A DNA stretch of 64,000 bases from an uncultured Candidatus Bathyarchaeia archaeon (GCA_964506435.1 CAZDLK010000002.1:16384-80383), one strand, 5' to 3'; shown: positions 40,705 through 44,245, counted from the first letter of the stretch. Notes: generated from the letters alone by a model not told the origin. Numbers and translations are program-made.

Positions 40705-42060
40705 CTACTTCTCAGTCATAAGCAAACTTTCCGAAGAATTCACCACATCTTCAACAAACGTCAGAACTCCATTGAAACCCATCAAAGGCCTCGTGGTCAA
40801 CAAGGCTTTTTCATGATAAGGAAAAGAAATAGGTATAAAACACGGCTGCTTCACATTCAACATCCTCGAAACATATTTCTCTACACTGCTTCCAAATACG
40901 AACCTAGGCGCCCTTTCGTTAAGACAATCCATAATTTCATATTGGTCAGGACAAACCATAATCGAAGTATCCAGCGAATTAACTCTGACATACCGCTTAA
41001 TTGCTTCGTAATTGTTTGGCCCCACCTCATTAAGACCAATTAAAGCAGGGTACATGCCCAAGTATTCGTAAAAAAAGGCGACAAGCGGCGCTACTTGAGA
41101 CGAGTCACCGAAGACGCCGAAAGTTGATCCTCTAAGACCCCTGCCGAGAGGAGAGGTACGCGCAAGAACAGGGTAACACTTCATCCTAACACGTTTTGAC
41201 TCCAAATCAACGCTTTGGCTGGAAATCTCGAAATAATCAGCAACTGCTCTCAACCATGTTTCTGTTGGACCCAGCCCAAAGGGTGCGAGAATATTCAAAT
41301 CCAGATGAGGAATTCCAAATTCTTTTTCAAAGAAAAAGCCAATCGCAGCACCATATTCTTCCTGAATGACCAAGTTAAGTTCAGCTTGGCTTGCGCGTTC
41401 AAGGTTCGCTAAAGATACGTCTGCACAAATAACAGACACTACCTTAACACCGAGCAAGGCAAGCATTCGTTTCAACTCTGAAATGTCATTCGCCCAATTA
41501 TAATGGAAAATTGTTGGACCCACTATGTTGACGCTTTTAGGCAATTTTTTGGAATTGACCTTAACTACGGTTTCAAGAATTTTAATCGTTGCAGTTTTGA
41601 ACCCCTCTGCATAAGTTCCAGTAAAGCCAGTGCTATCCATTATTGTGGTCTTGGGTTTTAGATTGGAACCGCGAACTATTCTGCCAAGATCTTCACCAAT
41701 TAATGAAGTACCCGAGTGGTTTATGACTCCGAGTAGTCCACAGCGTTTTGTTTCAAGCAAATGAAGCGCTTTCACGAGGTTTTTTTCAGTACCGTAGATA
41801 AAATCTCGATCATCAACATAGGTGCAAGCAATTCTACGCTGATTAAATGGAGATTTGTTTAAGCAATCAGAAGATTCAGTGGAATAAATGAGGGGTGCCT
41901 GCAAATCAGTTGTGTAAGTTAAATAGGATTTACAGGATAGGGGACCAACAAGCACAGTATAAGCTTCGCGAATTCCTTCAAAGGCAGCTATTGCCCCTGC
42001 AAGAGAATCCAGTCTATGCGAAGCCTTGGAAGAGGTGCCCATCATTTCTCCAACCTTCAT
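40705..42060 (-). CDS. Nitrogenase component-1-like subunit, beta type (NifK/NifN/BchB-like)
   Basis: 451 aa. LVGPLSC...INHSGTSLIGEDLG pattern of the Oxidored_nitro fold. Overlaps the upstream fused gene by 47 nt. Confidence 0.7.
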   Translation of the reverse strand: MKVGEMMGTSSKASHRLDSLAGAIAAFEGIREAYTVLVGPLSCKSYLTYTTDLQAPLIYSTESSDCLNKSPFNQRRIACTYVDDRDFIYGTEKNLVKALHLLETKRCGLLGVINHSGTSLIGEDLGRIVRGSNLKPKTTIMDSTGFTGTYAEGFKTATIKILETVVKVNSKKLPKSVNIVGPTIFHYNWANDISELKRMLALLGVKVVSVICADVSLANLERASQAELNLVIQEEYGAAIGFFFEKEFGIPHLDLNILAPFGLGPTETWLRAVADYFEISSQSVDLESKRVRMKCYPVLARTSPLGRGLRGSTFGVFGDSSQVAPLVAFFYEYLGMYPALIGLNEVGPNNYEAIKRYVRVNSLDTSIMVCPDQYEIMDCLNERAPRFVFGSSVEKYVSRMLNVKQPCFIPISFPYHEKALLTTRPLMGFNGVLTFVEDVVNSSESLLMTEK

Positions 42061-44245
42061 TGAAAGGAACCTTCAGTTTTGAATACAATTGGCTAGCGTA
42101 TTCGAGTCCACTGTTGAAACCATAATTGGGATAAATGGGAAAAGCGCAACACGGAACGCTGTAGCTGAGCCCACTAAGAAGAGGAGGTGCTAGGATAAAA
42201 TCTGGACGGGTTTTGAGTATAACCTGTTCGCGGTCTTCAGGCGGAGAATTTTGTTCAATTTCAAATTTTCCGTGATATTTAGTAGACACAGGTGAATCAG
42301 TTGAAGAAAGTGTAGAAACGCAAACTTTCGATATTTCCACGCCTAAGTCAAGTAGTGTAGAAAGAAGCCAATCAATGTTGTGTGAATTACTAAAAATTAA
42401 AGCTTTCTTTCCAGAAAAAAAGTCCTTTAAAGAAGAAAGCTGCCTCTCATAATCTGAATGCGCAGCACAAATTAATTTTTCAGCCTCAGACTTTTTCCCA
42501 AAACGCAAAGCAAGAGCACGAGTAAATTCGGCAGTCTGATTAAAAGCAGCAGGAAAAGGCAGCTGGAGAGTCTCCAAATTGAAACGGGTTTTGAAGAGTT
42601 CAGGCAATGTTTGACATAGACGCGGTCCATAAGTGAACATGAGGTTAACACAAGCTCTCTTAAAGTGCTTTATCTCAGCCAAACTAGTATCTCGAATAAA
42701 ACGACAGTTCACGTTAATTCCTAAGCCGCTAAATATCTTTCTTAATTCATCAAAATTTGGTTCACCGAATCGGGCAATCGTTATTTCCCCAACAACATTG
42801 ACTGAATCATCAAGTGTAGTGACACTATCATCAATCAAGTTTTCTGCGATTGCCCGATAGGCACCGAGAACGCCATCACCATAATCTCCTTTAATAACAC
42901 CAGCAGAATCAATGGACAGCACACTTACTCCTTCACTCTGCAGCTCACTGGCAAGAGAATTAACGTCTTCGCCGATAATTCCAGCGGGACAAGAATTAAT
43001 GATAAATATAACGGAGGAGGGAAACCTTTTGTAAACTTTTAGTATTGTCTCTCTTAACTTGCTGGCGCCTCCGAAAATAACATCTTTTTCCCGCATGTTT
43101 GTACAAAGAAGATTCGGCAGAGACCTCTCACCAGAACTCGATTGTGAATTATCAGTCATTTGCGACCAAAATTGAATATACGAGCAACCCTGAGAGGAAT
43201 GTATTATGGCAACAGCATCTTTAATTTGACCAACAACGGAAGCCGCACCTGATAAAGAACACCCATGAGCGGGTTTTTCCGACCTTGCTGATGAGTTCCC
43301 CTTAATTTTCCCATCTGAAAAAGATGCGGTTCCTTTCGGCGCTTCTGATTTGAATATACTCGATTGCGGAGACGAATTGCCTGCAAGTTTTTGAACAGAA
43401 GCAGAACATTTTATCATCTTCGAATCATAAAGATACTCATGAAGAAAATGATCCAACTCTTCATCTGAAAGAGGTTTTGGCACAACAGGAGTATGTTTAC
43501 GCTCAACATGATCCGCGATGGACCTGAAAACATCTGCTATGTCAGATTCTGGAGTGTACTGCATTATTGGTTTAGATGCAAGCTCGGCCTGAACAACAAG
43601 CTCGCTTCGTGGAACGAACGCAACCAGCTCCGTGCCAATTAATCTTGCAAAAGCAGTGATGACTTCCCTTTCGTTCTTCGTCCCCCGCTCATTGCCAATG
43701 ACCCCTCCAAGCTTGCCATGAGAAGTAGAAAAACGCTTCAAACCCTTAGCTATATTGTTAGCCGCATAAAGAGAGGCAATCTCCCCGGAAGAAACAATGT
43801 ACACCTCATCTGCGTACCCCTCACGCATAGGCACGGAAAAACCGCCACAAACCACATCGCCTAAAACATCAAAAAACACATAATCAAACTGTCCAGTATC
43901 CAACCCCTGCTCCTTGAGCAATTGCAACATCTGAATAATACCTCTCCCAGCGCATCCAACACCAGGTTCTGGACCGCCGCTCTCGATACACTTGATTCCG
44001 CAGTACCCCGTTAACATGACGGAGTCAAGCGAAACAGAACCAATACGATTAAGTTGCTCTAAAACGGTTTTCTGCGTGAACCCGCCCAAGAGTAATCGAG
44101 TGGAATCATGCTTGGGATCACAGCCTATTTGCAAGAGCTTCTTCCCGTTGACCGCCAAAGCAGCTACAACATTTGATAGAATAGTGGATTTTCCAATTCC
44201 GCCTTTACCGTAAAATGCAATACCCTTCACCTGGCAGTCCACCAA
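42014..44245 (-). CDS. Fusion protein: NifH/BchL/CfbC-type Fe-protein ATPase (about aa 1-270) + S-rich linker + NifD/NifE/BchN-like component-1 alpha-type domain
   Basis: YGKGGIGKST, DPKHDSTR, GVGCAGRG, DVVCGGF; then HGCSLSGA...IIHSSQGC...INSCPAGIIGED. A single uninterrupted 743-aa ORF. Confidence 0.75.
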   Translation of the reverse strand: MVDCQVKGIAFYGKGGIGKSTILSNVVAALAVNGKKLLQIGCDPKHDSTRLLLGGFTQKTVLEQLNRIGSVSLDSVMLTGYCGIKCIESGGPEPGVGCAGRGIIQMLQLLKEQGLDTGQFDYVFFDVLGDVVCGGFSVPMREGYADEVYIVSSGEIASLYAANNIAKGLKRFSTSHGKLGGVIGNERGTKNEREVITAFARLIGTELVAFVPRSELVVQAELASKPIMQYTPESDIADVFRSIADHVERKHTPVVPKPLSDEELDHFLHEYLYDSKMIKCSASVQKLAGNSSPQSSIFKSEAPKGTASFSDGKIKGNSSARSEKPAHGCSLSGAASVVGQIKDAVAIIHSSQGCSYIQFWSQMTDNSQSSSGERSLPNLLCTNMREKDVIFGGASKLRETILKVYKRFPSSVIFIINSCPAGIIGEDVNSLASELQSEGVSVLSIDSAGVIKGDYGDGVLGAYRAIAENLIDDSVTTLDDSVNVVGEITIARFGEPNFDELRKIFSGLGINVNCRFIRDTSLAEIKHFKRACVNLMFTYGPRLCQTLPELFKTRFNLETLQLPFPAAFNQTAEFTRALALRFGKKSEAEKLICAAHSDYERQLSSLKDFFSGKKALIFSNSHNIDWLLSTLLDLGVEISKVCVSTLSSTDSPVSTKYHGKFEIEQNSPPEDREQVILKTRPDFILAPPLLSGLSYSVPCCAFPIYPNYGFNSGLEYASQLYSKLKVPFNEGWRNDGHLFQGFA

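Follow-up and report, generated by a model that had tools for sequence, protein, structure and literature searches.

A widespread nitrogenase-like protein with a covalently fused NifH-type reductase, a candidate corrinoid reductase of anaerobic archaea and bacteria

The nitrogenase-like enzymes studied so far, among them nitrogenase, DPOR, COR, CfbCD and the Mar system, all depend on a free Fe-protein dimer that docks and is released again in repeated cycles, and release of the Fe protein is considered rate-limiting in nitrogenase. Here, we analysed a stretch of 64,000 nucleotides from an uncultured Candidatus Bathyarchaeia archaeon (GCA_964506435.1, CAZDLK010000002.1:16384-80383; hereafter the window), in which a single gene at 42014–44245 on the minus strand joins a NifH-type reductase (H module) covalently to a NifD/NifE-like catalytic subunit (D module) and is followed by the gene for a second catalytic subunit (K partner). 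As an overall explanation, we favour with modest confidence a single-chain nitrogenase-like corrinoid reductase, whose likeliest reaction would be to reduce Co(II) to Co(I) so that adenosylation can follow.

Such fusions have been mentioned three times before, each time briefly and without being analysed. Dos Santos et al. 2012 noted them as 'data not shown' and filtered the sequences out before building their phylogeny, a table in Borrel et al. 2014 (PMC4153887) has an entry 'fused nifH/nifE', and Padalko et al. 2024 (PMC11237513) devote one sentence to the fusion in methanogens. In the literature covered, from which subscription-only papers fall outside, no work was found that joins nitrogenase-like enzymes with cobamides, corrinoids, CobN or riboswitches, and the PDB contains no fused chain. 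The initial annotation, made from the DNA alone, had known of no characterised example, and none was found in the literature or the PDB; its view that a tethered reductase is unusual also holds, as the architecture differs from that of every characterised nitrogenase-like system. Its further suggestion of an undescribed branch survives in part: the branch is distinct and uncharacterised, but given the three mentions and the wide distribution described below it is neither unseen nor rare. The novelty lies in the architectures, tethered and tandem, and in the probable class of substrate, while the components and the general nitrogenase-like chemistry are known.

The open reading frame (ORF) listing of the window gives 42014–44245 as one unbroken frame of 743 codons with TTG as the first, in agreement with the initial annotation. 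A database protein (P0001) is 100% identical to the window fusion, is 738 residues long and begins with the GTG at codon 6 (44228–44230). This GTG is more likely the true start than the TTG, because residues 1–5 of the fusion correspond to gaps in 86% of its relatives. Pfam profiles of both expected families matched the protein, Fer4_NifH at residues 9–271 (E = 2.6e-100) and Oxidored_nitro at residues 329–688 (E = 1e-66). The model of the whole fusion predicted by AlphaFold2 (AF2), with a predicted local distance difference test (pLDDT) score of 85.7, consists of two confident modules, and residues 277–325 between them have a pLDDT below 50.

The H module (residues 7–271; 43433–44227, minus strand) is a complete Fe-protein/NifH-type ATPase. 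It carries the P-loop GKGGIGKS at residues 13–20, switch I (CDPKHDSTR) at residues 42–50, the switch II region at residues 126–136, and the two [4Fe-4S] ligands Cys98 in GCAGRG (43952–43954) and Cys133 in VCGGF (43847–43849), all of them invariant across 92–93 aligned fusions. In the AF2 model, this module superposes on NifH structures with template modelling (TM) scores of 0.86–0.93 at 44–53% identity. The NCBIfam models nifH (348 bits, cut-off 394) and CfbC (339 bits, cut-off 402) both score under their curated cut-offs, and neither BchL (207 of 345) nor BchX (176 of 331) reaches its own.

The linker (residues 272–325; 43271–43432, minus strand) comprises 54 residues, 13 of which are Ser (24%); it is unconserved and modelled with low pLDDT. 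Across the family (n = 182 fusions), linkers span 28–110 residues with a median of 49, are likewise unconserved and are enriched about twofold in Ser and Pro, suggesting that they behave as flexible, disordered tethers. The D module (residues 326–743; 42017–43270, minus strand) has a NifD/NifE/MarD-like fold and contains the motifs HGC (C329), HSSQGC (C354) and NSCPAGIIGED (C419). The Fe-protein motifs, the Ser-rich linker and this alpha-type pattern are thus all present as initially reported. An alignment of relatives shows four invariant cysteines in the D module, namely C329, C354 and C419, which are the alpha-side cluster ligands, and C514 (42704–42706, in 'VNCRF'), which is specific to the D module of this family. 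All NifD/E, BchN and CfbD models of NCBIfam score far below their cut-offs on this module (nifD 106 of 654, BchN 44 of 420, CfbD 41 of 268 bits). With the full-length model, the top 50 Foldseek matches were NifH chains; the D module was also remodelled alone from a shallow alignment (pLDDT 75), and its closest structures were then NifD and MarD with a TM of about 0.72 (9fmg_A and 9d9u_A among the best).

The K partner gene (40705–42060, minus strand) encodes 451 residues and matches Oxidored_nitro with E = 1e-61, so the beta-type partner of the initial annotation is present. The overlap of 47 nt that had been given for the two genes applies only from the first ATG at 42060; the probable start is Met7 at 42042, since the orthologues begin there in the alignment, and this shortens the overlap to 29 nt, compared with 11–29 nt at other loci. 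In 83 of 85 loci (a count made before duplicates were removed), the fusion and a K gene are direct neighbours. DPOR_BchB is the best NCBIfam model for K (135 bits, cut-off 490), BchZ (69 of 529) and nifK (41 of 427) also stay below their cut-offs, and the match to the BchB model stops at position 419 of 512, leaving its C-terminal region of about 90 residues without a counterpart. In the PDB, ChlB (2xdq_B) is the best relative of K and MarK (9d9u_C) the second.

A five-way alignment revealed a single invariant cysteine in K, Cys43 (41932–41934) in the motif GPxxCK, which aligns with the alpha-chain motif 'HGPxGC' and thereby with the position of NifD Cys88 and NifK Cys95. We take this position to be that of the BchB ligand Asp36, as read from the shared 'HGPxGC/D' motif and not from a direct alignment with BchB. 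According to this motif-based mapping, the family pattern consists of three cysteines from D and one from K, with a cysteine in K where DPOR has an aspartate; COR is reported to have an all-cysteine set of cluster ligands. The set of P-cluster cysteines is incomplete, with three of three on the alpha side and only one invariant cysteine on the K side. Neither the alignment of relatives nor an alignment with VnfD showed a conserved equivalent of NifD Cys275 or His442 in the D module. C514 was considered as an equivalent of Cys275 and rejected, as the VnfD and MarD alignments both place the cofactor cysteine about 20 residues later; in the case of VnfD it falls on the unconserved 'MFT' of the window protein. 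Because three D cysteines and one K cysteine are present without the ligands of FeMo-cofactor or a full P-cluster, the sequences point to a single bridging [4Fe-4S] cluster of the DPOR/COR type rather than an 8Fe P-cluster. The catalytic core is therefore nitrogenase-like in its fold and not in its clusters, a point on which the initial annotation needs correction. The core is a mosaic by profile and fold, with D nearest to NifD/NifE/MarD, K nearest to BchB and H scoring about equally on NifH and CfbC, and every curated equivalog model stays below its cut-off for H, D and K. By these sequence comparisons, the fusion family is a separate branch within the nitrogenase-like superfamily.

The same fusion was found in many genomes. 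Among 5.8 billion protein clusters searched, more than 100 combine both domains in proteins of 715–790 residues and are 30–61% identical to the window fusion. When one reference genome per GTDB species was scanned with a pattern of the D module only, and thus blind to NifH, 80 loci were kept, 78 of which carry a NifH module in the same ORF; they belong to at least eight phyla, and the hosts include Bathyarchaeia, Desulfobacterota, Bacillota, Chloroflexota, Acidobacteriota, Actinomycetota, Treponema and Methanospirillum. Some of these hosts are cultured strains with complete genomes (Desulforapulum autotrophicum HRM2, Desulfosarcina variabilis, Clostridium lundense and C. tetanomorphum). Of the two loci that looked unfused, one is cut by a contig end, and the other (L057; L numbers denote individual loci) has an interrupted frame in a metagenome-assembled genome (MAG). 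L057 was examined as a natural split gene and rejected as such, since it contains a single in-frame TAA at the Glu codon of the conserved 'REPLHGC'. The linker DNA of the window has no N and no long homopolymer run, and the ORF as a whole has no N. The integrity of the frame is far beyond chance, and the fusion is common and old, not peculiar to this genome. We regard the window fusion as almost certainly genuine and functional. In public metagenome annotation, these proteins are named 'nitrogenase iron protein NifH', a label that can inflate estimates of nitrogen-fixation potential.

Beyond the protein itself, the point that the initial annotation missed is the cobamide context. Downstream of K in the window, and all on the minus strand, lie genes for a Fec/Btu-type importer, a CobN-type chelatase and CbiZ. 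The importer consists of a substrate-binding protein (Peripla_BP_2; 39214–40353) with an N-terminal membrane anchor, a Thr/Pro-rich stalk and weak NCBIfam matches that are all below cut-off, a FecCD/BtuC-type permease (38141–39217; Pfam FecCD, E = 1e-91), which recurs across loci, and an ABC transporter ATPase (37293–38150; Pfam ABC_tran). The large chelatase subunit (33575–37321; 1248 residues; Pfam CobN-Mg_chel, 1306 bits) scores over the NCBIfam cut-off for cobaltochelatase CobN (1011 vs 822 bits). CbiZ, an adenosylcobinamide amidohydrolase (32800–33558; Pfam CbiZ, E = 1.8e-50), serves archaeal cobinamide salvage and cobamide remodelling.

To place these genes in a wider frame, neighbourhoods were compared across 82 non-redundant loci, 53 of which are at least 15 kb long (long loci), with markers counted within 10 kb of the fusion. 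A cobamide-specific marker was present in 27 of the 82 loci and in 22 of the 53 long loci, so that co-location with cobamide-specific genes or cobalamin riboswitches applies to roughly 40–50% of the long loci and not to all. Among the 82 loci, the markers were the adenosyltransferase CobA (8 loci), DUF4430 proteins (7), CbiZ (5), CobN (5), CbiQ (2) and the cobalamin riboswitch (19, of which 10 are confirmed by Rfam and the others rest on a sequence-only nhmmer profile). These markers cluster at the edges of the operon, with 20 of 50 lying within 1 kb compared with 6.5 expected for an even spread (chi-square p ~1e-6, a value that, like the counts, overstates independence because the loci are phylogenetically related). 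A Fec/Btu-type importer adjoins the fusion in 19 of 82 loci from six lineages. In a de novo clustering of neighbours, parts of this importer were the only protein families to recur widely; the next commonest neighbours were the CobA/BtuR adenosyltransferase (8 loci) and a TIM barrel of PF01261 (7), then CbiZ, CobN and MoxR.

Individual loci show how these genes are arranged. CbiZ also occurs near the fusion in L005, L031, L048, L063 and L066, and CobN in five other loci, which belong to Desulfobacterota and Chloroflexota. The order [CbiZ]-CobN-CobA-TIM barrel-binding protein-permease-HD-K, in which HD denotes the fusion, is shared by Desulfosarcina variabilis and a related MAG. CobA adjoins the fusion in L028 and L046, and BtuB-like receptors also occur among the neighbours in relatives. 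CbiR, a cobamide-remodelling phosphodiesterase, belongs to PF01261, and the published table of its homologues includes many Desulfobacterales (Mok et al. 2020, PMC7733943). No NCBIfam model matched the TIM-barrel neighbour and its identity with the published CbiR genes could not be shown, so its link to CbiR is drawn from their common Pfam family, the gene context and the taxa in the list of Mok et al. 2020.

Riboswitches were also recorded. When full-length bacterial loci were tested irrespective of earlier evidence, Rfam found a cobalamin riboswitch in 6 of 14, and further loci were confirmed. In L022 (Formimonas) and L027 (Chloroflexaceae), the riboswitch immediately precedes the fusion and has the same orientation. 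In three further loci, an operon headed by a riboswitch reaches the fusion, by way of a CbiR-like TIM barrel in L038, of energy-coupling factor (ECF) transporter genes including CbiQ in L029 and of a TonB-dependent receptor in L041. Others govern adjoining genes for CobN, CobA or a giant DUF4430 surface protein. Universal control of the fusion by B12 riboswitches was considered and rejected, since the signal is found in the long loci, often at neighbouring operons, and in only one of 18 short loci. The riboswitch claim is one of neighbourhood enrichment together with several direct cases. The giant surface proteins, of 1,300–2,500 residues with SLH, Ig-like and DUF4430 domains, adjoin the fusion operon under riboswitch control in Clostridia (L059:14364-19766; L064:12646-20052, minus strand; L076:2-3943, minus strand; L022:15680-16597) and may capture corrinoids at the cell surface.

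Further observations concern the surroundings of the fusion operon in other genomes. In the complete Bathyarchaeia genome CP170178.1 (31017–71574; L007 and L008), two paralogous fusion operons lie about 20 kb apart, one adjoined by CbiZ and the other by a full importer. A PP-loop ATPase of the Diphthami_syn_2 family (MJ0570-like) is encoded directly upstream of the fusion in two Marinisporobacter genomes (L059:8390-9046; L043:4305-5021). In a Sporobacter MAG, the fusion operon is followed after about 0.8 kb by a fluoride riboswitch (L038:6167-6240, minus strand), which is probably unrelated.

Combined, the gene neighbourhoods make it reasonably probable that the fusion works in cobamide metabolism and that its substrate is an imported corrinoid. 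In B12 synthesis by the aerobic route, cobalt chelation by CobNST is followed by the reduction of Co(II) to Co(I) by the flavoenzyme CobR and by adenosylation through CobO/CobA (reviewed in PMC7242693). The HD and K genes occupy the slot of this reductase, between or beside CobN and CobA, in several loci (e.g. L013, L063 and L087). The Co(II)/Co(I) couple has a potential of about -500 to -600 mV, and such potentials are reached by nitrogenase-type Fe proteins only on ATP binding, which would explain such costly machinery. We therefore propose, tentatively, that the chemistry is cobalt reduction for adenosylation rather than ring reduction. With the same reserve, we put forward the broader idea that anaerobic bacteria and archaea have in this family their missing ATP-driven corrinoid reductase, which would supply Co(I) for adenosylation.

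In the proposed mechanism, two H modules would form a dimer, with Cys98 and Cys133 of both chains holding one [4Fe-4S] cluster between them. This H2 unit would dock on the D/K pair, and ATP hydrolysis would pass a low-potential electron to the [4Fe-4S] cluster of D/K and from there to the bound substrate, an imported corrinoid such as a vitamin B12-type cofactor or one of its precursors. Reduction of Co(II) to Co(I) would allow a CobA-type adenosyltransferase to act, after which CbiZ or CbiR-type enzymes would remodel the product. The resulting order of salvage, i.e. import, reduction, adenosylation and remodelling, would be coherent because CbiZ and CbiR act on adenosylated corrinoids, as assays have demonstrated for CbiR (PMC7733943).

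Several points weigh against this interpretation. The proposed corrinoid substrate is deduced from gene neighbourhood and riboswitches. The loci are related to each other, so that both the counts and the p-values overstate independence. Many riboswitches control a neighbouring operon rather than the fusion, and the single B12 riboswitch among the 18 short loci lies downstream of the operon. In 26 of the 53 long loci, neither a cobamide marker nor a Fec/Btu-type importer was found within 10 kb, and the same is true for all six loci of Actinomycetota. Scans of the window found no CobA and no Rfam match; as the window is archaeal, no cobalamin riboswitch is expected there. Fec/Btu-type importers also carry haem and siderophores. 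In Salmonella, Co(II) is reduced by flavodoxin together with CobA, and a dedicated ATP-driven enzyme is not obviously needed. The nearest matches of the D module in both sequence and fold are NifD and MarD rather than BchN. Furthermore, the known nitrogenase-like enzymes that act on tetrapyrroles all reduce the macrocycle and not the metal (PMC7242693).

This last precedent leads to the main alternative within the cobamide context, which we consider unlikely: a cobamide enzyme that reduces the corrin or tetrapyrrole macrocycle, or reductively removes the upper ligand. Such an enzyme could turn an imported or CobN-metallated intermediate into a usable corrinoid, in parallel with DPOR, COR and CfbCD, which reduce double bonds of the ring; the characterised tetrapyrrole-acting nitrogenase-like enzymes are all ring reductases (PMC7242693). 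The cobamide context fits it equally well, the DPOR/COR-type set of three plus one cysteine ligands and the BchB-like partner agree with it, and the invariant Cys514 could serve as a proton donor or axial ligand. However, canonical salvage of cobinamide and cobamides has no known need for ring reduction, and the tightest partner of the family is CobA, whose substrate is a Co(I) corrinoid.

Less probable is a reductase like Mar, or another small-molecule reductase acting on organosulfur or other non-tetrapyrrole compounds, whose proximity to B12 genes would be indirect, e.g. through corrinoid-dependent methyltransferases. MarD structures (9fmg, 9d9u) are indeed among the best matches of D, MarK is the second-best PDB match of K, and about half of the long loci lack a cobamide marker. 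Mar, however, has a P-cluster and an L-like cofactor, and here K has one invariant cysteine and D lacks the cofactor Cys and His; the census of neighbour clusters revealed no recurring sulfur-metabolism, NifB-like or radical-SAM genes, and the partners that do recur are genes of uptake, adenosylation and remodelling rather than corrinoid-dependent methyltransferases.

Slightly more doubtful still is that the enzyme works, through the Fec-type importer and the CobN-type chelatase, on some other metal chelate taken up by the cell, e.g. haem, a siderophore or a nickel or F430-type tetrapyrrole. The commonest protein-coding neighbours, importers of the Peripla_BP_2/FecCD kind, lack specificity for B12, the CfbC model of the F430 pathway gives the H module nearly the same score as NifH (339 vs 348 bits), and CobN homologues are suspected of nickel chelation. 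Nevertheless, the hosts are mostly non-methanogens, CfbD is homomeric and its model gives just 41 bits, and CbiZ, CobA, CbiB/CobT/CobD and cobalamin riboswitches are specific to cobamides. The weakest alternative, an assembly, frameshift or gene-calling artefact joining separate nifH-like and nifD-like genes, is very improbable and effectively refuted for practical purposes, because, even though unfused relatives exist (L087/L088) and one MAG has an interrupted frame (L057, an in-frame stop and not a gene boundary), the frame is continuous in 78 of 80 independent genomes including finished isolate genomes, the identical P0001 was deposited independently and the linker DNA has neither N nor homopolymer.

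Relatives with other domain arrangements bear on how a fused corrinoid reductase might be assembled. About 19 of the best 120 matches are H-H-D proteins (P0060–P0078) of approximately 1,080–1,106 residues, in which two intact NifH modules precede the D module; their H1-H2 linker is tightly constrained to 17–22 residues, and the H2-D linker spans 48–58 residues. One example, P0062 (L004:10001-13321), is adjoined by the same K partner gene and a Fec-type importer; a DUF1559/SBP_bac_10 neighbour in L004 suggests a planctomycete host. The H-H-D form may be viewed as a single-chain Fe-protein 'dimer' tethered to its catalytic partner. No extra free NifH gene is encoded at any fusion locus examined, and the gene ratio of H, D and K is 1:1:1 for the common fusions and 2:1:1 for the tandem ones, the latter being the canonical ratio in nitrogenase and DPOR complexes. 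Since H-H-D proteins keep both full motif sets and the loci lack a free NifH, the H modules presumably must act as a dimer, which at a ratio of 1:1:1 has to come from two chains. For the common form, this predicts either one H2 per (HD-K)2 that serves the two catalytic halves in turn or H2 dimers formed between separate units. With a tether, the Fe-protein cycle, which is normally dissociative, would become intramolecular; a single H2 per (HD-K)2 would imply obligatory half-of-sites (alternating) electron delivery, and H-H-D would restore the ratio of 2:1:1.

An exhaustive D-module search of 1.84 billion representatives gave 59 relatives at E ≤ 1e-30, most of them fused and some genuinely unfused. 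In L087 and L088, H (278 residues), D (432 residues) and K (444 residues) are separate genes, and this unfused relative is 32% identical. Its operon (L087:3729-10962, and L088) runs cobalamin riboswitch-CobA-H-D-K-TonB-dependent receptor, with CobA directly upstream of H, and is situated directly downstream of genes for a CobD-aminotransferase, CbiB and CobT.

Within the window, the K gene and the importer are separated by a spacer of 351 nt (40354–40704, minus strand) with oligo-T tracts after the K stop codon and a TATA-like element, TTTATATA. Because of these tracts and the TTTATATA element, two adjoining transcription units are probable, one with the reductase pair and the other with the importer, CobN and CbiZ genes. 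On the other side, 5 nt from the fusion ORF and on the same strand, a gene at 44251–45009 encodes a secreted, C-terminally anchored protein of 252 residues with an N-terminal signal or anchor, a PEF-type C-terminal signal (identified by eye) and a DOMON score of 25 bits against a cut-off of 32.7. It is possibly the first gene of the operon, its membership of the system being uncertain, and could be a surface ligand-binding protein; no protein of this type was found adjoining the fusion at other loci.

More distant genes of the window were also recorded. A divergent group at 45242–47733 (plus strand) encodes a PadR regulator, a DrrA-like ABC ATPase and a membrane protein without a Pfam match; in another Bathyarchaeia genome (L002:13555-15350), a DrrA-like ATPase and then an ABC-2 permease directly follow K. 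Two adjacent CbiA/ParA-type P-loop proteins with inserted 2x[4Fe-4S] ferredoxin domains and an Fe-S carrier ATPase of the NUBPL/Mrp type (58947–60649 and 61999–62919, both minus strand) are distant relatives of the NifH fold that apparently stand outside the fusion system. Kelch-repeat proteins, two NosD/beta-helix proteins and a 762-residue PQQ-like beta-propeller (23228–26939, 49065–50309 and 50579–52867, all minus strand) are predicted to be surface proteins, and in L029 a beta-propeller protein (4440–6194) is likewise encoded in the transporter operon, controlled by a riboswitch, that precedes the fusion. A T2SSE ATPase of the type IV pilus/archaellum type and a T2SSF platform protein are encoded at 6581–9863 (minus strand), and the same genes lie near the fusion in the Bathyarchaeia loci L002 and L005. 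This shared synteny, together with best matches at about 60% identity, supports the assignment of the window to Bathyarchaeia.

The natural tethered and single-chain-dimer forms are ready constructs for the study of gated electron transfer and are relevant to the engineering of simpler nitrogenase-type enzymes. If the cobamide link is true, the family would contain the first nitrogenase-like enzyme in B12 metabolism and would close a gap in the understanding of the way strict anaerobes and archaea ready scavenged corrinoids for adenosylation and remodelling. Salvage of corrinoids shapes the sharing of B12 in sediments and in the gut, and many hosts of the fusion are gut Clostridia and Coriobacteriia.

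In comparison with the superfamily as a whole, the locus shares a NifH-type module and two Oxidored_nitro (PF00148) subunits encoded together, and differs in that the reductase is covalently fused to D instead of being a separate, transiently docking homodimer. With DPOR (BchL/N/B) and COR (BchX/Y/Z), it has in common an ATP-dependent NifH-type reductase, a heteromeric catalytic pair and a predicted single bridging [4Fe-4S] cluster without a complex cofactor. In contrast to both, its D module is nearer to NifD/NifE/MarD than to BchN, the scores for BchL, BchX, BchN, BchB and BchZ are far below their cut-offs, the hosts are non-phototrophs and the context is one of cobamides rather than chlorophyll. 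CfbCD, the Ni-sirohydrochlorin a,c-diamide reductive cyclase, resembles it in the nearly equal CfbC score of H, the tetrapyrrole-related context and the occurrence in anaerobic archaea; however, CfbC is a free homodimer and CfbD a homomer, while the fusion core is a heteromeric D/K pair and most of its hosts are without methanogenesis.

The solved structures of MarBHDK (group IV-A) are among the closest to both D (9fmg_A and 9d9u_A) and K (9d9u_C), but MarH is a separate protein, and the fusion has neither the sulfur-metabolism context nor either set of cofactor ligands. For Mar, P-cluster-like and L-cluster-like cofactors are described in work cited in a passage of bioRxiv 10.64898/2026.08.20.746119. 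NifHDK and NifEN share with the fusion an H module 44–53% identical to NifH, a D fold similar to NifD and the three alpha-side P-cluster cysteines; the fusion differs from them by the absence of FeMo-cofactor ligands, a single beta-side cysteine, Nif scores below cut-off and the absence of a nitrogen-fixation context. RACE proteins also spend ATP on the reduction of Co(II) to Co(I). Together with CobR and PduS, such RACE-type activators would be functional analogues of the fusion in its proposed task and not homologues, as their folds and cofactors are unrelated.

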